From positions 1 through 62,847 of the forward strand of contig JBDRPX010000022.1 of the NCBI GenBank assembly GCA_043826565.1: a stretch of 62,847 bases of DNA, written 5' to 3'. Position 1 is the stretch's first letter. The number at the start of each line of letters is the position of its first letter. Source of the stretch: Candidatus Omnitrophota bacterium. GTDB taxonomy: Bacteria > Omnitrophota > Gorgyraeia > B26-G9. Below the pieces are notes generated by a model that was not told where the DNA came from, did not search any database, and saw only the letters and a program-made list of their open reading frames with translations. This document shows, piece after piece, positions 7,345 through 42,524 of this stretch. The translations under genes were made by a program, and so were the position numbers.

Positions 7345-8745
7345 ATGAAATATAAGAGTATAAGCTTAGAGGAACAGCCCTTATTTGAGTTACCACAGCT
7401 TATCATGTTTTGTATTTTACTTTTCTCGTTTTTTTTGGGTTTGAGTTTACTTGTTGTTCCCTGGTATTTAGTAGTATCTATTTTTCTTGTGATGGTTACC
7501 ACGGCAGCAATTTTTTTAAACCTATATGTGGCGTTGATAATCTTTCTTATTGGGGCTTTTTTCCACCCTACATACCATTTTCCGATGCTGCAAGGACTGC
7601 ACATAGCTCGTAATATGTCTCTTTTCATAATAATTATCTGGGCCGGACACTCTATGGTCTATCGTGATTTAAAGTTTCCCAAGGATGTTCAGCATCTTTA
7701 TATAGCGGGATTTTTAGTATTTGTTTTTCTCGCTTGTTTTAAGTATTTTGATGTGAGTTTTTCGTATTTTACGGAATTTGGAACCAAAGCTATTGTCCTG
7801 TATTTTGCGATCATTTGCTTATTGAATACTCGCGGCAGAGTAATAAACTTTGTTTCCTTTTTAATTTTATTTAGTACGATTTCGGCTTTAATTGGGATCT
7901 ATCAGTATATAAATCATATCGGTCTTTATTATGCTCAAGAAGGGATATTAAGAATATCCGGTCCTGATGAAGATGCTAATATTTTTGCGACGAATTTAAC
8001 TCTTTCTGTTCCGATAGTCATTAATGTGTTTATGGGAACTAAAAGAAAGGTTATAAGAAGTGTATTGTTTTCAGTACTGACAGTACTTGTACTTACAATT
8101 ATTTTAACTTTTTCCCGTGCCGGCATGATTCAGCTGGTTGCGGGTTTGTGGCTTACAATAGGAATTCGTATGATAAAAAAATATAAGGCGTTGGGAGTGA
8201 TTGTTTTTCTTGTGCTTTTTATGTTTATGCTTCCTTTTGTCCCGTCTAAATATTTTGATCGTATGGGAACTATTCTTAATTTCCAGGATCAAGCAATTGC
8301 TGCCCGCTTAGAAGGATGGCGTCTCGGAACAACAATGATTGCGGATCATCCTATTCGAGGAATTGGGTTTGCAATTTTTCGGTTTGAATTCTTAAAAAGA
8401 TCTGTAACCGGAATTGATACGCATTTTAAAAGAGCATTGGATGCGCATAATGTATTTATTCATACCGGAGCTGAAGTAGGACTGATCGGTTTGGGATTTT
8501 TGCTCTTACTTATAAGGCAGAGTTTCATTAATCTAAAATATGCTCGAGATAAATTAAAGCGACAGGGTGATATCCTATTATCAAACATAGCCGATGGTCT
8601 AAGGATAGGCCTATTAATTTATCTTATCGGAGGTATTTTTATATCATATTTGGAGTTGTTAATCTTTTGGATAATAATTCCGACTTCTGTAGTTTTAAAA
8701 CATTTAAGTGATAAATTGGAGAATCAGCAATGCCCAGAGATATGA
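7345..8745 (+). CDS. O-antigen ligase/polymerase-like (Wzy_C-type) membrane protein
   Basis: About 10-12 TM helices with a periplasmic loop carrying FSRAGMIQL...ARLEGWR...HAHNVFIH, typical of O-antigen ligase-like proteins. Confidence 0.7.
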   Translation: MKYKSISLEEQPLFELPQLIMFCILLFSFFLGLSLLVVPWYLVVSIFLVMVTTAAIFLNLYVALIIFLIGAFFHPTYHFPMLQGLHIARNMSLFIIIIWAGHSMVYRDLKFPKDVQHLYIAGFLVFVFLACFKYFDVSFSYFTEFGTKAIVLYFAIICLLNTRGRVINFVSFLILFSTISALIGIYQYINHIGLYYAQEGILRISGPDEDANIFATNLTLSVPIVINVFMGTKRKVIRSVLFSVLTVLVLTIILTFSRAGMIQLVAGLWLTIGIRMIKKYKALGVIVFLVLFMFMLPFVPSKYFDRMGTILNFQDQAIAARLEGWRLGTTMIADHPIRGIGFAIFRFEFLKRSVTGIDTHFKRALDAHNVFIHTGAEVGLIGLGFLLLLIRQSFINLKYARDKLKRQGDILLSNIADGLRIGLLIYLIGGIFISYLELLIFWIIIPTSVVLKHLSDKLENQQCPEI

Positions 8746-9899: not shown

Positions 9900-11143
9900 A
9901 AATAATACGATCTTTGAATATTTTATTGGTTACTGATTCATTTTATCCTGATGGGTTTGGCGGGTGTCACACTTACGTTTACTATTTGGCACGTGGATTA
10001 ATAAAAAAAGGTCATAATGTAGTTGTGGCTACAATAAAACTTAATGATAAACTGCCCACAGAAGAGATAATTGATCAGATAAAAATATTTCGCTATAATA
10101 CGCCAGTAAAAGGAAAGCTGCTTTTTTTATTACGGCCGTTTAATATGTATCTAAACTTGGGGGTAAAAGCGCCCTGGAAGGTGTCAGATTTTGATATTGT
10201 TCATCATCATGATCTTATTGCCGCTTCGGCAATGTATCAACTGAGCCGCTTAAAAAGTGTCCCGGCGTGTTATACCTTCCATTCTTCGGTATATGATGAT
10301 GTAACACATCAGCTAAAGAGAAAATCTTATGGTTTAAAACTCTTTAATAAATTAGTACTGGCAGCAATAAAATCCATGGAAAATTATGTACTAAAAAAAA
10401 GTAAGAAAATTATGGTGTTAAGTGACTTTAGTAAAGGTTATGTTCTTGATAATTATCCAAAGACGCTACCTAGTAAAATTGAAAAAGTCCCGGGTGGGGT
10501 AGATGGGAAGAACTTTTATTATATCGATCGTAGTAAAATGAACTGGGATGAGCAGAGAGATAGATTGGGACTTCCGAAAGATAAAAAAATTGTTTTTACC
10601 GCTCGGAGGTTAGTTGCAAGGATGGGGATTGAGAATCTTATAGAAGCAGCAGTCTTATTGCGCAAAAAGAGAAACGATTTTTTTATAGCTGTTTTTGGGG
10701 ACGGCTTTTTAAAGGGGCAACTCCAGGAAATGATTAACCTTAAAGGGTTGCAGGATAATTTTAAGTTAATGGGAAGGTTTGATTTTAAGGAATTGCCGTC
10801 TTTTTATCATGCTTGTGACCTTTTTATTATGCCGTCTGAATTTTCGGAATGGTTTGGGTTAGCTACCATTGAAGCCCTTTCTTGCGGACTCCCGGTTATT
10901 GGAACTCCCGCAGGCGCAACAGGTGAAATCCTTGAAGGCCTGGATAAGCGTTTAGTTATTTCCGGAGTAACTTCTGCTCATATCGCTGAAAAGATATCTG
11001 AGTTTTTAGGGATGAATAGAAGTGAACTGCTGGAGTTAGGCCGAATCGGCCGGGAATATGTTGAGGCTAAGTACTCCTGGGAAAAAGTTGTAGATGGAGT
11101 AGAGGCTGTTTATTTAAAGATGTTGGATACTAATACAAATTAA
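9896..11143 (+). CDS. glycosyltransferase family 4 (GT-B)
   Basis: ILLVTDSFYPDGFGG N-terminus and MPSEFSEWFGLATIEALSCGLPVIGT. GGAGGA RBS before TTG 9896, overlapping the upstream stop. The track ORF starts at TTG 9869. Confidence 0.8.
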   Translation: MKIIRSLNILLVTDSFYPDGFGGCHTYVYYLARGLIKKGHNVVVATIKLNDKLPTEEIIDQIKIFRYNTPVKGKLLFLLRPFNMYLNLGVKAPWKVSDFDIVHHHDLIAASAMYQLSRLKSVPACYTFHSSVYDDVTHQLKRKSYGLKLFNKLVLAAIKSMENYVLKKSKKIMVLSDFSKGYVLDNYPKTLPSKIEKVPGGVDGKNFYYIDRSKMNWDEQRDRLGLPKDKKIVFTARRLVARMGIENLIEAAVLLRKKRNDFFIAVFGDGFLKGQLQEMINLKGLQDNFKLMGRFDFKELPSFYHACDLFIMPSEFSEWFGLATIEALSCGLPVIGTPAGATGEILEGLDKRLVISGVTSAHIAEKISEFLGMNRSELLELGRIGREYVEAKYSWEKVVDGVEAVYLKMLDTNTN

Positions 11144-25462: not shown

Positions 25463-26604
25463 TGATCAAAATAATATTCTGGTTTATTTTTGCGCTGGTG
25501 TTGTTTATCTATTTCGGCTATCCTCTGGTAATGGCGGTTTTGGCGATACTGTTTAAAAAAGAACATCGCTATGACGATGGGTTTACTCCCAGCGTTACAA
25601 TGCTTATCCCCGCGTATAATGAAGAAAGTGTGATCAAAGAAAAACTGGAGAATACTCTTATTCTGGATTATCCCAAAGACAAATTAGAAGCGATCGTTAT
25701 GATCGACCAAAGCAGTGATAAGACCGAAGAGATTGTGAGAAGTTTTGCGGGTAAAGGCATAAAAATGTGGGTGCAGGTCCCGCGCCAGGGAAAAATGTCG
25801 GCTTTAAATTATATGCTGCCGAAGGCTCAGGGAGAAATAATCGTATTATCTGACGCTAATTCCATGTATAAGCCGGATGCGATCAAAAAGCTGGTGCGGC
25901 ATTTTAGTGACCCGAAGATCGGACTGGTTTGCGGAGAGCTGCGGCTGATTGATCCGAATACTCTGGTGGGATTAGGGGAGAATTTTTATTGGCGGTATGA
26001 GAAGTTTGTTAAAATCAGAGAAAGCCTTATGCATCAGTTATTAGTTGTGAACGGTTCGATTTATTCAATAAGAAAAGAGTTGTTTTCCGAAGTAGATCCG
26101 GCTTTAGCGGATGACTTTGTTCTGCCGATGCGCATTGCCGTTAAAGGATATGGATTGATCTATGAACCGGAAGCAATAAACGAGGAAAAAGTTTCCGATA
26201 CGGCTCAGGACCAGTTTAACCGTAAGGTAAGGATCATCAGCCAGGGTGTGGGTGCTTCATTTTCGGTGATGGGTATTTTGTTTAAATCTTCAGCTTTAAG
26301 GATATTTGAGTTTTTCTTTCATAAATTTCTGCGCTGGTTTGTTTTTCTTTTTACCAGCATACTATTCGGCCTGAATATACTCTTATTATCATCACCGCTT
26401 TATCTGAAGATATTTATCGCGCAGATAGTGTTTTATCTGTTTTCCCTGATCGGCTATATTTTACAGAAAAAGGGAAAGCATATTAAAATATTCTTTGTAC
26501 CGTTTTATTTTTTTCTGGTTAACTTTGCTTCTTTTTGCGGGGTATTGGGTTTCTTATTTGGTAAGAAAAAAGCAACTTGGGAGAAGGCGGAAAGCACACG
26601 ATGA
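25462..26604 (+). CDS. glycosyltransferase family 2 with N- and C-terminal TM helices (synthase-like)
   Basis: IPAYNEESVI, LSDANS (DxD-like), and a C-terminal cluster of 3-4 TM helices. Confidence 0.8.
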   Translation: MIKIIFWFIFALVLFIYFGYPLVMAVLAILFKKEHRYDDGFTPSVTMLIPAYNEESVIKEKLENTLILDYPKDKLEAIVMIDQSSDKTEEIVRSFAGKGIKMWVQVPRQGKMSALNYMLPKAQGEIIVLSDANSMYKPDAIKKLVRHFSDPKIGLVCGELRLIDPNTLVGLGENFYWRYEKFVKIRESLMHQLLVVNGSIYSIRKELFSEVDPALADDFVLPMRIAVKGYGLIYEPEAINEEKVSDTAQDQFNRKVRIISQGVGASFSVMGILFKSSALRIFEFFFHKFLRWFVFLFTSILFGLNILLLSSPLYLKIFIAQIVFYLFSLIGYILQKKGKHIKIFFVPFYFFLVNFASFCGVLGFLFGKKKATWEKAESTR

Positions 26605-27828: not shown

Positions 27829-27950
27829 ATAATAAATAAGTTTTAAATTTTAAATTGAATTTTTGAATTTTGCCTTTTGATTTTAGACTTATAAAGCAGG
27901 TTAGTTAAAAAAACTAATAAATATTGAATCAACCTTGAATTTTGACAATA
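27829..27950 (+). repeat. Copy B of the ~122-125 bp intergenic element (partner 17-141)
   Basis: See copy A. Ends 28 nt before ATG 27979. Confidence 0.85.
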
Positions 27951-31260: not shown

Positions 31261-32976
31261 GTGATGAAAATGAAGACAAAAACCAAAAGAAATTCACAGA
31301 TCGCTCTGATGGCAGTAGGAATACTGTTTATCAGCACTAATTTGTGGGCTGCCAGTTGTGAGATCGGGGCTTTCTTGGGTAATGGAAATCACACATCACC
31401 AACAAGTTATGAAGTTCAATCTTTTGAAGATCTCGTTGGCCAGCATTTAAGCACAGTTCAGGTTTTTTGGGCATGGAACGACGGAGCTTTCCCCGGAGCA
31501 GATTTGACCTCCGGTATTATTAATCATGATGGATACAATACTCAGACCAGTTTACAGCTTACCTGGGAGCCTTGGACAAGAAATCCCAGTGAAGATCCTT
31601 ATTCGCTCTCTAAAATTATAAATGGTGATTATGATTCCTACATCACTGAATTCGCTAATGATTGTTATGATTATGACGCGCCTATCCGTTTACGTTTTGC
31701 CCATGAAATGATCACCCCTGACGGTGTGGATACCTGGTATCCCTGGCAGAACAAGCCGGTTGAATATGTTCAGGCCTGGCAGCATATTTACAATATTTTT
31801 GAAAATGAATCCGCTAATCACGCGGTAGATAATGTTGATTTTGTTTGGGCGCCTTTAGGAGCGGTTGGCGACCTGCAGACTTTTCAGGCATATTATCCGG
31901 GACAGGATTATGTTGACTGGATCGGAATGGGCGGCCATAATGCCGGAGAGGACGGAGAACCGGGATTTCCTTACTGGCAGAATTTTGATGACTTATTCGC
32001 TAATTTATATAATAGTGTTATAGATCATCCGGAAGTTTTTGGTGATAAAGAAATGATGATCGCGGAATTTTCTTCCGCGGAAGATCTGACTGATCCGGCG
32101 CGTAAGGGTGAATGGGTCAGCAGAATGTTTATGGCTTTAAAAGACAGATATACAAAGATCAGTGCTATGTACTGGTTTAATGTAGATAAAGAATATGATT
32201 GGCGCGTGGATTCAAGTGAAGCGAGTTTGGCGGCTTTTCAGTACTGGCTGGCTGATGAATATTTTACATCGCATGTTGTTCCTGAACCGAGTAGTATGAT
32301 ATTATTCTTTACAGGTATTGCTTATATCGCAGCTAATTTTAAAAAAAATAATCTAAGAAAGGGGGGAAATACGTTGAATAAGAAGTTATTGGCATTATTA
32401 ATAGTTTTAATTATGGTAAGCACACTGGTGATTCCTGCGGCTGTTAAGGCGGTTGAAGAATTTACATCTTTCGGAGTTTATTTAGACCGCGGCAGCAGAT
32501 CAAACCATTATTGTCCGTCTGGATACATGGGCGATTATGGTGATCTGCAAGTTAACAGCGCGGCATCCAATGACCCATATTCCGGAAAGACTTGTCTTAA
32601 GTTTACTTACACAGCTGAAGGAAAACAGGGCGCGAATTGGGCCGGTATTTACTGGCAGTGGCCGCCGAACAACTGGGGAGAAAAGAGTGGAGGTTTTGAC
32701 CTCACGGGAGCGACAAAATTGACATTCTGGGCAAAAGGTGAAAAAGGCGGAGAACAGATCATTGAGTTTAAGATGGGCGGTTTGACCGGAACCTATTCTG
32801 ATACTGATTCTAATAGTATTGGACCTGTTGAATTAAGTACCGAATGGAAACAGTACACAATCGATTTGACTGATCTTGATATGTCCTACATCAGTGGCGG
32901 TTTCGCGTGGGTTACGAATTCTATGGCTAATCCAAATGGGTGTACATTCTATCTCGATGATATAAAGTATGAATAA
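31261..32976 (+). CDS. single uninterrupted ORF that looks like two genes: GH26-like glycoside hydrolase with PEP-CTERM signal, fused in frame to a signal-peptide CBM-like protein
   Basis: Likely start ATG 31270 after GAAGGTGA. Signal peptide. GH26-like catalytic Glu contexts RFAHEM and MIAEFSS. PEP-CTERM signal VPEPSSMILFFTGIAYIAANFKKNN at aa 339-364. Then AAGGGGGG RBS plus TTG 32374 and a second signal peptide LNKKLLALLIVLIMVSTLVIPAAVKA, followed by a beta-sandwich/CBM-like domain. Confidence 0.7.
   Translation: MMKMKTKTKRNSQIALMAVGILFISTNLWAASCEIGAFLGNGNHTSPTSYEVQSFEDLVGQHLSTVQVFWAWNDGAFPGADLTSGIINHDGYNTQTSLQLTWEPWTRNPSEDPYSLSKIINGDYDSYITEFANDCYDYDAPIRLRFAHEMITPDGVDTWYPWQNKPVEYVQAWQHIYNIFENESANHAVDNVDFVWAPLGAVGDLQTFQAYYPGQDYVDWIGMGGHNAGEDGEPGFPYWQNFDDLFANLYNSVIDHPEVFGDKEMMIAEFSSAEDLTDPARKGEWVSRMFMALKDRYTKISAMYWFNVDKEYDWRVDSSEASLAAFQYWLADEYFTSHVVPEPSSMILFFTGIAYIAANFKKNNLRKGGNTLNKKLLALLIVLIMVSTLVIPAAVKAVEEFTSFGVYLDRGSRSNHYCPSGYMGDYGDLQVNSAASNDPYSGKTCLKFTYTAEGKQGANWAGIYWQWPPNNWGEKSGGFDLTGATKLTFWAKGEKGGEQIIEFKMGGLTGTYSDTDSNSIGPVELSTEWKQYTIDLTDLDMSYISGGFAWVTNSMANPNGCTFYLDDIKYE
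32281..32352 (+). other. internal PEP-CTERM sorting signal (PEP, TM helix, basic cluster) ending in an A8 tract
   Basis: PEP codons at 32281-32289. Hydrophobic SSMILFFTGIAYIAA. KKNN is encoded by aaaaaaaataat at 32341-32352. Confidence 0.8.
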
Positions 32977-33056
32977 CTTTTAACCTAAGAAAAGGGGTGA
33001 TTGGGATGAAGACTTTATTATTAAATAAAATGAACGAAAAAACGAAAGGAGGTGAA

Positions 33057-33743
33057 ATGATGAAGAAATTAATCGCAATTATAGCTGTTATAACATTGTT
33101 AGGAATACCGTGTGTTGCTCAGGCAAACATGCTGACCAATGGTGGTTTTGAAACTACGTCAACAGCTAACACAGCAACCGGTAAGTTTCCTGGATGGACT
33201 ATTCTGTGGGGTGGAGCTGCTCCTTCTTACAATAACTGGCAGAGAACAGCTGCTGCTCCGTTTTCAACTGAAGGAAGCTGGTATGCTAAGTGTTGGTGGG
33301 ATGGCGGAATCAGCCAGGTTGTTAACGTAGTTGGCGGAACAACTTACTCATTGGTAACGGATGCGTTTTTGAATGGTAATGCTGGTACTCTGGGAACTTG
33401 GGAAATGTCCGCGAAAGTTAATTACTACAACGCTGCTGATGTATTGATCGAAGAGCAGACAGTATTATATCTCAATGATATTACCAAGAATGTTTGGCAG
33501 ATGAATCTGACAGGTTCTTCTTTAGCTCCGACACCGGCTGTTAAAGCAGAAATCATACTTTCCACATATTGGGAAGACCCAGGCATATTATCTACTGACC
33601 CGAGATTTGATGACTATGCGCCGGCTAATCCAACAGCATGGGATGACGTAAACTTTGATGTTATTCCTGAGCCGAGCAGTTTGTTACTGTTAGGAACTGG
33701 TATCATGGGCATGATCTCAGCAATGAGAAAGAAAAAAGCATAA
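33057..33743 (+). CDS. PEP-CTERM protein with CBM_4_9-like carbohydrate-binding domain
   Basis: AAAGGAGGTG RBS plus ATG 33057. Signal peptide MMKKLIAIIAVITLLGIPCVAQA. NMLTNGGFE opening typical of CBM4/9-like modules. C-terminal VIPEPSSLLLLGTGIMGMISAMRKKKA. Confidence 0.85.
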   Translation: MMKKLIAIIAVITLLGIPCVAQANMLTNGGFETTSTANTATGKFPGWTILWGGAAPSYNNWQRTAAAPFSTEGSWYAKCWWDGGISQVVNVVGGTTYSLVTDAFLNGNAGTLGTWEMSAKVNYYNAADVLIEEQTVLYLNDITKNVWQMNLTGSSLAPTPAVKAEIILSTYWEDPGILSTDPRFDDYAPANPTAWDDVNFDVIPEPSSLLLLGTGIMGMISAMRKKKA

Positions 33744-33775
33744 CATAATAGTATTATTTTATAGGTAAGACTAAC

Positions 33776-33806
33776 GGGGCAGGAGAAATCCTGCCCCGTT
33801 TTCTTT
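33776..33806 (+). terminator. rho-independent terminator
   Basis: GGGGCAGGA (33776-33784), loop GAAA, TCCTGCCCC (33789-33797), followed by GTTTTCTTT. Confidence 0.75.
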
Positions 33807-33830
33807 GGAGACAATATTGGTTTTTGACAT

Positions 33831-34009
33831 CTCAAAAACACGTCTTTGAGCTAAGTTCGCTGCGGCATCGTGCCTTGCAGACGCGCGTTCTCACTATTTT
33901 GACGTCCTTGTCAAAATTACCGCGCCTAGAAACTTTTACATCCTGTAAATCGGCCCGATTATTTCGTCCTGAAAATACGTTCGAAAGCGCCGCTCAAAGA
34001 GAATCTTTG
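33831..34009. ncRNA. candidate structured RNA: six consecutive hairpins (strand unresolved; minus-strand loops carry GGA motifs)
   Basis: Hairpins at 33831-33850, 33860-33880, 33897-33916, 33935-33949, 33960-33977 and 33995-34009. The region is noticeably more GC-rich than neighbouring spacers. The overlapping 67-aa ORF has no coding character. Confidence 0.35.
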
Positions 34010-34018
34010 TGCTGTCCT

Positions 34019-34046
34019 GAACGCTAGACGCTCTACGCTAAACGCT
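34019..34046 (+). repeat. 7-nt phased array GAACGCT AGACGCT CTACGCT AAACGCT
   Basis: Read directly. Four in-phase NNACGCT heptamers. Confidence 0.85.
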
Positions 34047-34055
34047 AATAAGGGG

Positions 34056-34084
34056 ATGAAAATAGCTGATTAGTGTGGTATAAT
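34056..34084 (+). promoter_or_regulatory. candidate extended -10 promoter (TGgTATAAT)
   Basis: TG at 34076-34077, TATAAT at 34079-34084, weak -35 ATGAAA at 34056-34061. Lies inside the track ORF N-terminal extension, which supports an ATG 34103 start. Confidence 0.5.
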
Positions 34085-34102: not shown

Positions 34103-36418
34103 ATGAAAAACAAAAGATCCGGAATAGCCTTAATCTTAGCTGTGGGAATACTCTGCATCCTGGCCATGGTGGCCGTGGGATTCTCCGTGGTTACCAAGGT
34201 CGAACTTAAATCATCGACTAATTTTGCCAGCCAGCTAAAAGCCCAATATATTGCTGAAGCCGGGATTGCTCGGGCTATTGAAGAGCTTAAATACGGAGCA
34301 GCCGGGGTTAAACAGCATCCTTATGATACGGAAATGGAAAACTGGTTTTATAAGGGGAATAATAATCCGGACCCGGTAGGTATTGATTTAAAAGATGCAA
34401 CACATCCTTCTTTTGATAATTTAAATGGTGCTTTGGGTGATAGTATTTCACAAAAAGATTTTCTCCCCACAAGTATTTTAAAGTTAAAAGTTTTAGACTG
34501 CGCCAGCCTGATAAATATAAATACTTCTTTAGCCAGTACCAGCGCGGAAACAGGCCTTAAAAATATGCTCATCGAACTGGGCTTAAATTCCACTCAGACT
34601 CAGGAGCTTATTGATTATCGCAATGCCGGCAATAAATTCAGTACTAAAGAAGAAGTAAAAAATGTTTTTTCTTCCGGCGCTGTGCCAGCGTATAACCGGA
34701 TAAAAGATTTTATTACTTTATATGGGGTTGAAGATACCGGAGCTGATCATACGGAAATGACTTTTGTAAATATAAATACCGCACCGAAAACTGTATTAAG
34801 GGCGGTGTTAAATCCGATCATGAGCTCTTCTGATCCTGAAACTTTAGCAAATGCGATCATTGCGCGAAGACAGGCTAATCCTTTTGACGGAGGCCCGGCG
34901 GGAAATGCCGCATATTCCTCAGCTTTAGGCGAGTATATAGATTTTTTAGAAAATCAGGGATTAATTGCCGCTGATCTAAAGGCTTTAAAAAACTATACTA
35001 ATCCGAATAGATTTGAAGCCGGTGTTTTGGTTACTCCGAGTACATATTTTTCTTTTGACGGGGGCGGAAATTATGAAATTGAAGCCTTGGCTTCTTACCG
35101 GGGCGCGAATAAGCGGGTTAAAACCGCAATAAAAATATTTAAGAAGATATATAAGACGACTACTGCTGAATTTGATGCGGGAGGTGAATTTGCTAGAGTA
35201 ACATCAAAAGATACCTGCCCGACAAAATATTCCAGTTTTAATCAGTTTAATTATGATCCTGCCACAGCCGATCCCATTAAAGGCGCTCTTAAACCCGGAT
35301 TTTGGGATGATTTTGAAGATACGGCTTATTCAACATCAGTCTGGAAAAAAGTTTCCGGGTTATTAGGATTTTTTCATGATGATATTAATAATATATATTA
35401 TTTGACTACCTTGGGAGCTCTTGATGCAAATCCTGTTATAACTATTGGGGATAAGGATGATTTAAATAAAAAATGGTTTTTTACAGATTTTTCGGGAGTA
35501 ATGAAAATTAAAGATGATGGAGGTTTGAGAGCCGGAGTGCCGCGTAATTGGAGAGAGCCTATAACTCCCGGCCCTCCCGGACCTGTTGAAAACAGTAATT
35601 ACTATGACTTTACTACTAATGAGGCGAATATACATCAAAAGTATATGTGTGCGGGGCATTTCATTTATAGGCGTCTTGGTGAAAGCGAAGGAACAGCGTT
35701 TATATCTAATATTCAGACCTCTACGGAATCAGGCTGGACGTCGTATCATAAACCACCACTACCAAGTCCACTTGCTATAGAATATTGGATGTATTACAAG
35801 CCGGATCTTTATAATTTAAGTAATAAATTTCTTTTGGATTCAGAGGCAGATGCGAGCCCTCCTGCTAGTGTTGATTGTACATATCAAGTCGATAAAACAA
35901 TTAGATTGACTTGCAAGGGATCTAATGTTGATGCAACTGCGTATTTAAACCCTTCAGATTCTTTATCAATAACTAAAAATTTTACTGGTCTGCCTGGAAA
36001 TGGACAAGTAGCTATATATGGTTCCGCAAATAGGCCGTGGGTAGAACATATTCGCATAATTCCTGTACAGGGTATATATACATCACCTACATATGATTTT
36101 TCCACTTTGGGTGCTATAGAATGGGGAACGATTTCCTGCGGTGTTGCTTTGCCTGACGGAGCTTCAGCTTTAAGTGAGCAGGTTGCAATTCAAACGAAAT
36201 CTGAAGCGTTTGCAGCTATTCCTCAACCAAATGACATTGCTATAGGAGGGTATTATAACCCGAGTGGAGGTATTATTGCAGGAACTAATTCAATAATTGC
36301 CTACAGGGTTTGGATGCTTTCCGGAGCAGGTACTAATTTTGAAAAGATTCCGGTTGTTGAGGATGTGACAATTACTTATATGCCAAAGACGGAAGTATTG
36401 TTTCAATCTTATAACTAG
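34103..36418 (+). CDS. GspK/PilX-like minor pseudopilin with a very large uncharacterised C-terminal region
   Basis: MKNKRSGIALILAVGILCILAMVAVGF pseudopilin-type N-terminus. AQYIAEAGIARAIEEL. HhH-like INTAPKTVLRAVL as in T2SS protein K. About 450 C-terminal residues with no recognisable family. Confidence 0.65.
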   Translation: MKNKRSGIALILAVGILCILAMVAVGFSVVTKVELKSSTNFASQLKAQYIAEAGIARAIEELKYGAAGVKQHPYDTEMENWFYKGNNNPDPVGIDLKDATHPSFDNLNGALGDSISQKDFLPTSILKLKVLDCASLININTSLASTSAETGLKNMLIELGLNSTQTQELIDYRNAGNKFSTKEEVKNVFSSGAVPAYNRIKDFITLYGVEDTGADHTEMTFVNINTAPKTVLRAVLNPIMSSSDPETLANAIIARRQANPFDGGPAGNAAYSSALGEYIDFLENQGLIAADLKALKNYTNPNRFEAGVLVTPSTYFSFDGGGNYEIEALASYRGANKRVKTAIKIFKKIYKTTTAEFDAGGEFARVTSKDTCPTKYSSFNQFNYDPATADPIKGALKPGFWDDFEDTAYSTSVWKKVSGLLGFFHDDINNIYYLTTLGALDANPVITIGDKDDLNKKWFFTDFSGVMKIKDDGGLRAGVPRNWREPITPGPPGPVENSNYYDFTTNEANIHQKYMCAGHFIYRRLGESEGTAFISNIQTSTESGWTSYHKPPLPSPLAIEYWMYYKPDLYNLSNKFLLDSEADASPPASVDCTYQVDKTIRLTCKGSNVDATAYLNPSDSLSITKNFTGLPGNGQVAIYGSANRPWVEHIRIIPVQGIYTSPTYDFSTLGAIEWGTISCGVALPDGASALSEQVAIQTKSEAFAAIPQPNDIAIGGYYNPSGGIIAGTNSIIAYRVWMLSGAGTNFEKIPVVEDVTITYMPKTEVLFQSYN

Positions 36419-36443
36419 AAATCTTATAAAAAACAAGATTTCT
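36417..36443 (+). other. perfect 9-bp inverted repeat AGAAATCTT / AAGATTTCT (AT-rich hairpin) overlapping the stop codon
   Basis: Stems at 36417-36425 and 36435-36443 with a 9-nt loop. No T-run follows, so terminator function is uncertain. Confidence 0.3.
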
Positions 36444-36444
36444 T

Positions 36445-36481
36445 GATTACAAAGATTAAACAGGAGATTACAGTGATTAAA
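36445..36481 (+). repeat. GATTACA-word element, left flank of the GxxExxY gene (W1 GATTACAAAGATTAAA, W2 GATTACAGTGATTAAA)
   Basis: W1 at 36445-36460 and W2 at 36466-36481. Perfect reverse complements occur at 36840-36855 and 36862-36875. Confidence 0.85.
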
Positions 36482-36844
36482 GAAAGTGATCCATTAACTG
36501 AAAGGATAATCGCCTGCGCTTATAAAGTACATAGTGAACTTGGCCCGGGGTTTAATGAGAAGATATATCATAATGCTTTAAAAATATCCTTAAAAGATCA
36601 GGGTTTGAATTATGAAACTGAGAAAAGTTTTAATGTTTCTTTTCAGGATGAAAAGATTGGTAACTTCAGGCTGGATTTAATCATAGAAGACAAGATTGTC
36701 ACTGAACTGAAAGCTCTAACCGGGAATATCCCGGCATTATGTGAATTGCAGGTTTTATCGTACTTGAAAGCATCAAAATATAAAGTCGGACTATTAATAA
36801 ACTTTGGTAATAAAAGCTGTCAAGTTAGAAGGTTAATGATTTAA
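36473..36844 (+). CDS. GxxExxY protein (PD-(D/E)XK nuclease-like small protein family)
   Basis: ELGPGFNEKIYHNAL (GxxExxY), LDLIIEDKIVTELKA, LLINFG. GGAG RBS 6 nt before GTG 36473 (the track ORF starts at TTG 36443). Confidence 0.85.
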   Translation: MIKESDPLTERIIACAYKVHSELGPGFNEKIYHNALKISLKDQGLNYETEKSFNVSFQDEKIGNFRLDLIIEDKIVTELKALTGNIPALCELQVLSYLKASKYKVGLLINFGNKSCQVRRLMI

Positions 36845-36875
36845 TCTTTGTAATCTATACATAATCACTGTAATC
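36840..36875 (-). repeat. GATTACA-word element, right flank of the GxxExxY gene (inverted)
   Basis: TTTAATCTTTGTAATC (36840-36855) is the reverse complement of W1. TAATCACTGTAATC (36862-36875) is the reverse complement of the W2 core. Confidence 0.85.
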
Positions 36876-36921
36876 AGGTATAATCTTAATTTTTTGTGAA
36901 GATTATACCGGGGAGAACAAT

Positions 36922-37237: not shown

Positions 37238-37346
37238 CAGATGACAGAAGTCAGAAGACAGAGGACATACGACAGAATGTTTTAAGTCACAAGTCACAAG
37301 CTGCAAGTAGAAAACCGGAAAACAAGTAATAAGTGGTAAGGATTAA
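37238..37346 (+). repeat. two adjacent 7-nt phased arrays (CAGANNN x6, then AAGTCAC-type x9)
   Basis: 37238-37279: CAGATGA CAGAAGT CAGAAGA CAGAGGA CATACGA CAGAATG. 37284-37346: AAGTCAC AAGTCAC AAGCTGC AAGTAGA AAACCGG AAAACAA GTAATAA GTGGTAA GGATTAA. Confidence 0.85.
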
Positions 37347-39660: not shown

Positions 39661-40023
39661 ATGAGGAGAAATTTTAGAAATATAAAAGCATGGCAGCGTT
39701 CAGATGATATGGTGATGTTGGTTTATAAGAAAAGCAGATCTTTTCCCCGAGAAGAATTGTATGGCTTGACTTCTCAGTTAAGAAGAGCAGCTTTATCGGT
39801 TCCAACAAATATTGCGGAGGGAGCAAGCAGAGACTTCCAAAAGGAATATCTTCAATTTTTAAATATAGCTAGTGGTTCAATTTCTGAGGTAGAGTATTTG
39901 TTGCATGTATCAAAAAGATTAAATTATTTAAATGAAAAAGATTATTTTGAGATAGAAATTGCTAGGAAAGAAGCAGCTAAACTTTTGCATGGACTTATTG
40001 TTTCTGTGAAAAATGACAAATAA
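39661..40023 (+). CDS. four-helix-bundle protein (23S rRNA intervening-sequence protein / Avd-like family)
   Basis: IKAWQRSDDMVMLVYK, YGLTSQLRRAALSVPTNIAEG and GSISEVEYLL are hallmark blocks of this family. 120 aa. GGTGA RBS. Confidence 0.85.
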   Translation: MRRNFRNIKAWQRSDDMVMLVYKKSRSFPREELYGLTSQLRRAALSVPTNIAEGASRDFQKEYLQFLNIASGSISEVEYLLHVSKRLNYLNEKDYFEIEIARKEAAKLLHGLIVSVKNDK

Positions 40024-42445: not shown

Positions 42446-42524
42446 GGCCATTATTATTTCGGGTGAAATACTGTAGAATGACCCTGATTACAATGATTAA
42501 AAAATTGATTACACCGATTGGATA
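42444..42524 (+). repeat. 81-bp direct repeat, copy 2 (starts within the PilZ stop codon)
   Basis: See copy 1. Confidence 0.9.

Follow-up and report, generated by a model that had tools for sequence, protein, structure and literature searches.

The stretch analyzed here (the window) is a 62.8-kb Omnitrophota contig with a GC content of about 39%, on which nearly all genes lie on the + strand. An exosortase/EpsI/PEP-CTERM cluster is followed there by a gene (ATG at 34103) for a 771-amino-acid GspK/PilX-like pseudopilin, whose relatives come from metagenome-assembled genomes annotated as Omnitrophota or PVC group (best match 43% identical). Exactly between the PEP-CTERM terminator on its upstream side and the GspK-like promoter on its downstream side, 23 nt after the T run of that terminator, sits the element studied here, a string of short hairpins at 33829-34013 (Table 1). 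An initial annotation, made from the letters alone, had proposed it as a candidate small RNA (sRNA), either a sponge for CsrA/RsmA on the - strand or an anti-Shine-Dalgarno RNA on the + strand. We found that 33829-34013 is a single copy of a non-coding repeat that is modular and occurs at several places in the genome, and the comparison of copies supports a shared loop motif, UCC on the + strand and GGA on the - strand, that recurs on stems of unrelated sequence.

Table 1. Features of the repeat and of its immediate surroundings (positions in the window; H1 to H4, internal hairpin modules).
Feature	Position	Strand	Remarks
PEP-CTERM gene, open reading frame (ORF)	32997-33743	+	Upstream neighbor
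Rho-independent terminator of the PEP-CTERM gene	33773-33806	+	12-bp GC-rich stem 33773-33800, T run to 33806; outside the repeat, left neighbor
Hairpin GTTTTTGA-CATC-TCAAAAAC	33820-33839		Remnant module just outside the unit
Repeat unit	33829-34013		185 bp; bounds are where contigs of the same genome start or stop matching; multi-copy, modular
Left terminal palindromic module CTCAAAAAC-AC-GTCTTTGAG	33831-33850		Same module as right end
H1 CTGCGGCA-TCG-TGCC(TT)GCAG	33860-33880		2-nt bulge; decayed UCCU loop
H2 ATTTTGAC-GTCCTT-GTCAAAAT	33896-33917		Most stable AU-rich module
Weak outer stem P1 (CCGCGCC/GGCCCGA)	33920-33926/33952-33958	+	From covariance-model alignment; encloses H3
H3 TTTACA-TCC-TGTAAA	33935-33949		CAGGAUG on the - strand; most abundant module in the genome
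H4 TATTTC-GTCCT-GAAAATA	33960-33977		CAGGACG on the - strand; thermodynamically marginal
Small hairpin CGTT-CGAA-AGCG	33978-33989	+	U.G pair 33980/33987
Right terminal palindromic module GCTCAAAGA-GAA-TCTTTGTGC	33992-34012		Same module as left end
Half-module remnant GTCCTGAA	34014-34021		Exact repeat of H4 loop and start of its 3' arm (33966-33973); just outside the unit
Extended -10 promoter of the GspK-like gene	34056-34084	+	ATGAAA, 17 nt, TGgTATAAT; right neighbor

The hairpin cluster with its shared loop motif is real and non-random. All six inverted repeats of the initial annotation (the two terminal modules and H1 to H4) were recovered within 1 nt of where it had placed them, together with the + strand loops GTCCTT, (A)TCC(T), and GTCCT and a TGTCCTG at 34013-34019, and on the - strand CAGGAUG (33939) and CAGGACG (33965) are exact instances of CAGGA(U/C/A)G. 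Having at least three TCC-loop hairpins (stem of at least 5 bp) within 100 nt was matched in only 2 of 300 first-order Markov simulations of the whole window, and no comparable triple was seen in about 500 kb of other loci; single hairpins of this kind are common (about 23 per strand per 62.8 kb). Other parts of the earlier description were weaker or failed. The - strand hairpin UUUACAGGAUGUAAA had been said to match 11 of 12 positions of the SELEX consensus for CsrA, RUACARGGAUGU, but it matched 8 of 12 without gaps and reached 11 only with a 1-nt gap, and no ungapped stretch of the region did better than UGACAAGGACGU, at 9 of 12. The unusual GC-richness turned out to be modest (45.5% versus 39.1% in the window, the 91st percentile of 255-nt windows), and the loop motif is absent from two of the six hairpins (33831-33850 and 33995-34009, which lack GGA/UCC) and decayed at 33860-33880. 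As for the hairpin chain, 33829-34013 folded better than shuffled sequences (z = -2.22 on the + strand and -2.29 on the - strand), but the wider span 33800-34060 did not (z of -1.2 and -0.8). The minimum free energy (MFE) was lower on the - strand (-55.4 versus -47.8 kcal/mol), as was that of the - strand shuffles, so that the z-scores are equal, and the hairpin at 33960-33977 is marginal as an RNA (-0.3 kcal/mol).

We found no sign that the element encodes a protein. Its sole ORF (67 amino acids) has no homologs in the protein database, the repeat boundaries vary between copies, concatenated translations of the other five frames gave no protein database match, and neither a tRNA nor a tmRNA was found. 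The initial annotation had noted the lack of a convincing promoter or terminator of its own, and this held: a consensus scan combined with manual reading, covering sigma-70-type promoters, revealed no promoter or terminator of the element on either strand.

The multi-copy nature of the element became apparent from read depth. Only one public run contains the window sequence, a groundwater DNA metagenome (X1; SRR26275510 according to its Logan record), and the organism was present neither in a second metagenome (X2) nor in a metatranscriptome (X3) of the same study. In X1, the flanking genes have a word depth of about 180, and the summed depth over 33807-34028 climbs to 380, then 720, and then 1500-2500, to which short unitigs at 2-3x genome depth contribute. 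The genome holds at least seven copies, as the element was also found on at least six other contigs of equal depth, namely 361974 (176x), 87194 (176x), 281522 (186x), 33085 (172x; 24.9 kb long, with its copy in the interior), 569519 (160x), and a 150x contig. Each is 80-95% identical to the window over part of 33821-34013 and then continues into an unrelated flank of its own; because the depths are equal and the flanks differ, these are paralogous copies in one genome rather than alleles or sequences of other organisms. At 33963, inside the element, the window's own Logan contig is broken, as assemblies usually are at repeats, and no second copy lies within the window. The copies are also mosaic in content. 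One has 33898-33975 swapped for CTCGCCCATCCATGGGCGGAT, another joins the H2 hairpin directly to 33977, and in further copies the match starts at 33923 or 33933, or stops at 33955 or 33977. The most abundant piece is the H3 hairpin with its 3' flank, at a summed depth of about 2000-2500 against about 180 for the genome.

The internal anatomy is likewise that of a mosaic. The nine bases 33843-33851 are perfectly complementary to 33992-34000 (for the ends as a whole about 17 of 23 positions, by eye), and the element ends can be read as direct and inverted terminal repeats alike. H2, H3, and H4 share a 13-nt start, AYTTTNAC/TCRTCCT (77% identical), with the arm differences present on both sides of the stem, and so they are duplicated modules. 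Traces of modules extend just beyond the unit. The hairpin at 33820-33839 resembles an H2 module whose loop has been truncated, its 5' arm TTTTGACATC sharing 90% identity with the 5' arm of H2 and the beginning of the H2 loop, and the copy on contig 33085 matches from 33821 already; on the other side, GTCCTGAA carries the fourth CAGGACA of the initial annotation and lies outside any hairpin. A separate resemblance was seen at 36638-36656 (+ strand), where TCTTTTCAGGATGAAAAGA, an 8-bp stem with a GGA loop inside the ORF of a PDDEXK_3 gene, is nearly identical to the H4 reverse complement TTTTCAGGAYGAAA, at a level that BLAST statistics place within chance.

What the modules have in common is the loop. 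The H2 loop reads GUCCUU in the window and AUCCUU or AUCCCU in other copies, H3 presents AUCCU and H4 GUCCU, and the swapped-in module CGCCC-AUCCAU-GGGCG carries the same kind of loop on a GC-rich stem that is unrelated to the AU-rich stems of H2 to H4. For H1, copy A (contig 361974) reads GGC-CUCCU-GCC through 33863T, 33867C, 33870C, and 33876G, and copy E (contig 33085) reads ..TC|CTTGCC, so that the AUCGU loop of the window is a decayed UCCU loop. The constant part is thus C-N-UCC-(N)-U-G on the + strand, or C-A(N)GGAN-G on the - strand, set on stems of unrelated sequence, and all six - strand loop types conform to it (AAGGAC, AGGAU, AGGAC, AGGAG, AAGGAU, and AUGGAU). H2 on the - strand, ACAAGGACGU, fits the RsmE/CsrA structural consensus (A/U)CANGGANG(U/A) (WCANGGANGW) at 10 of 10 positions. 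Seven of the eight visible differences between copy A and the window fall in loops or linkers, though stems make up 46% of the stretch, and the sole stem change keeps a U.G pair. Together, these comparisons support the view that the GGA/UCC loop motif is a genuine feature and one that looks selected.

Comparison with three relatives at the syntenic locus (L002, L033, and L034) indicated how the element came to lie where it does. In the window, 360 nt separate the PEP-CTERM-type gene from the GspK-like gene, versus 134 nt in L002, about 100 nt in L033, and about 90 nt in L034, and the syntenic spacers of all three lack the element. The L002 spacer consists of a terminator and, about 35 nt on, an extended -10 promoter (TGaTATAAT), with nothing more. 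The longer spacer and the lack of the element in relatives show the repeat to be an insertion between terminator and promoter.

We therefore read 33829-34013, with moderate confidence, as one copy of a dispersed, modular, non-coding Omnitrophota repeat that is comparable in its features to miniature inverted-repeat transposable elements (MITEs), BOX elements, or REP clusters. Its architecture is that of two copies of one palindromic module bounding a string of short hairpins, whose stems differ and whose loops share a motif, and this copy landed in the gap between the PEP-CTERM terminator and the GspK-like promoter. Because this copy lacks its own transcription signals and shows decay in two loops, it is best regarded as a probable passenger rather than a dedicated sRNA gene. 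Mechanistically, loops that stay constant while the stems vary suggest that a protein, dimeric or multimeric, recognizes the hairpin loops when the nucleic acid is single-stranded; this could be an RNA-binding protein of the host acting on read-through transcripts or a protein that mobilizes the element. The sponge interpretation of the initial annotation thus survives in part: the GGA/UCC loop motif is supported as genuine and resembles CsrA sites on the - strand, but the locus is not a discrete sRNA locus, and the proposed single sRNA gene gave way to one copy of a repeat that occupies at least six other loci of the genome. For annotation, this means that labeling the spacer as a unique sRNA gene should be avoided.

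Several points weigh against this assignment. The composition of the other copies was reconstructed from depth-resolved variants and 30-nt loose ends, not from full sequences. Exact scans of genome contigs (19-mer, 7 hits) and metagenome contigs (18-mer, 23 hits), two collections that do not include the source genome itself, returned chance hits with no similarity beyond the seed; 55 kb of relatives held no hairpin cluster, and the family was found in no other genome. A target-site duplication was not found, as the flanks ..GGTTTTTGAC and GTCCTGAACGC.. share none, and since both inverted ends are one and the same palindromic module, they are weak evidence for a classical MITE. The genome was seen through 62.8 kb, and a transposase, a RAYT, or a parent insertion sequence with matching ends would lie outside that scope. 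Finally, an RNA bound by CsrA would be expected to show just such a constant A(N)GGA loop, so that a repeat and a decoy are compatible with each other. A blastn search of the element against plasmids gave no match.

Under the decoy explanation, leftward transcription of the element, or of some of its copies, would yield A(N)GGA loops that titrate CsrA dimers off mRNAs in the manner of CsrB or RsmZ; a multi-copy repeat would then supply many CsrA sites. The copy in the window has four GGA motifs on the - strand, three in loops and one unpaired, with two exact CAGGAHG matches. In its favor, the six loop types and the H2, H3, and H4 matches described above all point to this strand, the core GGA is invariant, and the spacing of 0 or 1 nt after the A is the known A(N)GGA degeneracy, which a + strand reading does not explain. 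[quoted passage not shown] Against it stand the lack of a - strand promoter and of a terminator at the left end, as well as the orientation of the window, since with nearly all genes on the + strand read-through would yield + strand RNA. No CsrB, CsrC, or Rsm family matched at E <= 10, and tblastn with CsrA, FliW, and Hfq gave no match in the window or in the loci of the relatives. Boundaries and module content vary between the copies, unlike those of paralogous sRNA genes. We consider this explanation unlikely on balance. A combined version, in which a mobile modular repeat spreads A(N)GGA-loop arrays and those arrays that are transcribed act as CsrA decoys or as CsrA-responsive modules in 3' or 5' untranslated regions (UTRs), has in our estimate only a small chance of being right; by analogy, the Bacillus repeats that bear Bacillaceae-1 would do likewise. 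If repeat-borne CsrA decoys were real, they would be the first Csr-type titration system outside Gammaproteobacteria, spread by a repeat rather than by a dedicated sRNA gene.

The evidence on strand is weak and mixed, with two G.U wobbles in stems that form on the + strand only against one terminal pair of the outer stem that favors the - strand, and with equal fold z-scores that favor neither. Those wobbles are among the points for a + strand RNA with RUCCU loops, made by read-through or as a 3' UTR, which would bind a homodimeric protein or pair with AGGA-type Shine-Dalgarno sequences as an anti-Shine-Dalgarno mimic. One is U33863.G33877 in copy A (-5.2 versus -4.3 kcal/mol) and the other U33980.G33987 in the window, a C-G pair in copy C on contig 281522 (-1.2 versus 0 kcal/mol), each giving the + strand a small folding advantage. 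The match to the Rfam Bacillaceae-1 family is also on the + strand, the element is co-oriented with its upstream gene, as are most of the Bacillus copies read, which have a same-strand stop codon upstream, and the loop variant CCUCCU is the anti-Shine-Dalgarno core. Yet a strong terminator ends 23 nt upstream (stem end 33800, T run to 33806), so little read-through is to be expected; no + strand promoter lies inside the element, loops such as AUCCA pair poorly with a Shine-Dalgarno sequence, and RUCCU loops have no known partner protein. We give this proposal a slight chance. Recognition as double-stranded DNA, with the palindromes TTGAC-N6-GTCAA, TTTACA-N3-TGTAAA, and TTTC-N5-GAAA serving as an operator array for a transcription factor of the GspK-like gene, is highly improbable: the palindromes are perfect and lie directly 5' of the promoter, but the half-sites differ from one another, and what is conserved are the centers, which would be mere spacers for a dimeric factor. 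Moreover, six or more further loci, each in a setting of unrelated sequence, carry these modules too, and the orthologous gene in relatives has a promoter without such an array. That the hairpins are chance structures without biological meaning might be argued from the frequency of single TCC-loop hairpins and the bare stability of H4, but the rarity of the triple cluster in simulations and the fold z of about -2.2 speak against it, and the 80-95% identical repeats elsewhere in the genome effectively refute it.

Other features of the window were recorded along the way. Four tandem heptads of the form ACGCTNN (ACGCTAG, ACGCTCT, ACGCTAA, and ACGCTAA) occupy 34020-34048, directly 5' of the -35 box of the GspK-like promoter, and similar heptads with other flanks occur on X2 contigs at a depth of about 280-290. 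L002 has a CCCC-TTCC-GGGG hairpin (9960-10000) in the short 5' UTR just before the GspK-like start codon, for which the 5' UTR in the window has no equivalent. Two genes of the window, the PDDEXK_3 gene (GxxExxY-type, 36443-36844) and a 23S_rRNA_IVP gene (four-helix-bundle, 39661-40023), are missing from the otherwise syntenic loci of L002, L033, and L034 and, like the hairpin repeat, look like small insertions into intergenic gaps of this lineage. Upstream, a single 571-amino-acid ORF (31261-32976) brings together a GH26-like domain, a PEP-CTERM motif in its interior (residues 340-354), and another domain where relatives have two separate genes (7450-8559 and 8566-9171 in L002), and it is probably either a fusion or a pair of genes that a single frame reads through. 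Five further stretches (26482-26514, 27841-27884, 36829-36887, 37238-37277, and 42485-42519) were matched at 85-95% by contigs with unrelated flanks from the unrelated samples X2 (DNA) and X3 (metatranscriptome), and may belong to additional short intergenic elements that are either dispersed or conserved widely, of which some would be transcribed elsewhere.

Among known families, mosaic intergenic repeats offer the broadest comparison, such as BOX of Streptococcus pneumoniae, REP/BIME clusters, and MITEs including Correia elements. Like them, the element is shorter than 300 bp, non-coding, intergenic, multi-copy, and rich in hairpins, gains, loses, and swaps modules, and has inverted or palindromic ends; with MITEs in particular it shares its small size (185 bp) and its many copies with different flanks. 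It differs from all of them in that the loop is conserved and not the stem, and we found neither a GTAG-type REP signature nor a tetranucleotide common to the flanks of H2, H3, and H4. [quoted passage not shown] Its 3-4 sites per copy, however, come without a promoter, an upstream activating sequence, or a terminator, in a dispersed mosaic repeat rather than a gene and outside Gammaproteobacteria, and the models of these and other Csr/Rsm families had no Rfam match at E <= 10 on either strand. The GUCCY-hairpin motif was rejected as a candidate because its consensus flanks the hairpin rather than lying in the loop.

A closer resemblance was found to two motifs that have been orphans since 2010, with function and even strand unknown. 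Desulfotalea-1 (Weinberg et al. 2010; not in Rfam) has paired UCC-loop hairpins (UGCC-AUCCA-UGGCA, CCUC-AUCCC-UGAGG, and GCAC-GUCCA-UGUGC) in many copies per genome. Compared by description rather than with a model, the element shares the multi-copy habit and, in its swapped module CGCCC-AUCCAU-GGGCG, the AUCCA loop, but stems and spacing differ, and Desulfotalea-1 belongs to Desulfotalea and Desulfitobacterium and often lies beside rRNA operons, of which the window has none. For Bacillaceae-1 (RF01690) the comparison could be made quantitatively. No Rfam family matched the window at gathering thresholds, and under permissive settings Bacillaceae-1 was the sole notable match, at 33910-33975 on the + strand over the full model (1-67), with a score of 33.5 bits (gathering score, 35) and an E-value of 2.6e-4 regionally or, when the whole window was set against all 4227 families, of 0.025. 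In the outer stem CCGCGCC/GGCCCGA, five of the seven positions pair and the other two are C.A and C.C mismatches, and MFE folding leaves this stem unused.

Bacillaceae-1 was described as presumably trans-acting, in many gene contexts, with two RUCCU loops "suggestive of binding to a homodimeric protein" (Weinberg et al. 2010, PMC2864571, Additional file 1). Its discoverers were unsure of the strand, and Gardner and Eldai reported a match between their CsrA-site model and the motif in reverse complement, putting forward CsrA binding as a testable hypothesis (PMC4333381). B. subtilis carries 8 copies (PMC8208703). In the flanked alignment of Weinberg et al. (PMC2864571, Additional file 4), we observed that the Bacillus motif lies inside a conserved repeat of 178-182 nt, directly after host terminator hairpins, and that this repeat has inverted ends (TCAGCGTGTCGACAAACCCT and a near complement); this setting has apparently not been stated before. 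Two of the three full Bacillus copies (B. licheniformis 1209976 and B. subtilis 318464) have near-identical host terminator hairpins on both flanks, as if the insertion had duplicated the terminator. The Bacillus repeat is probably the "190-bp element repeated 10 times" of the 1997 B. subtilis genome paper.

The likeness extends from the loops to the architecture. Both have adjacent RUCCU-loop hairpins (here H3 with AUCCU and H4 with GUCCU, to which H2 adds GUCCUU), and the outer stem around the first hairpin of Bacillaceae-1 may have a counterpart in the weak stem P1 around H3; both are multi-copy and intergenic in varied gene contexts; and in both the strand is uncertain and the reverse strand resembles CsrA sites. 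The Bacillus repeat of 178-182 nt with inverted ends after terminators has its counterpart in a unit of 185 bp with palindromic ends, 23 nt past a T run. There are also differences: the score is under the threshold, two of seven outer-stem pairs are broken, and the host is an omnitrophote rather than a member of the Bacillaceae. At least five UCC-loop module types occur here instead of two, with module content varying among copies, and the window element lacks the terminator duplicated on both flanks of the two Bacillus copies. Outside the motif there is no primary-sequence similarity, and an nhmmer profile of four Bacillus repeats gave no match on 33829-34013.

That this loop motif also turns up in a PVC-group candidate phylum suggests a class of elements that recurs, possibly by convergence, and would be more than a Bacillus oddity, with UCC/GGA loops on variable stems, paired or arrayed hairpins, and a repeat of about 180 bp just 3' of a terminator as its traits. 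The many paralogous copies in a single genome sharpen any test of strand, covariation, and partner, be it CsrA or not. Overall, the comparisons show that, in structure and architecture, nothing described so far comes closer to the element than Bacillaceae-1, motif and repeat taken together, with membership failing narrowly on score and clearly on the flanks.

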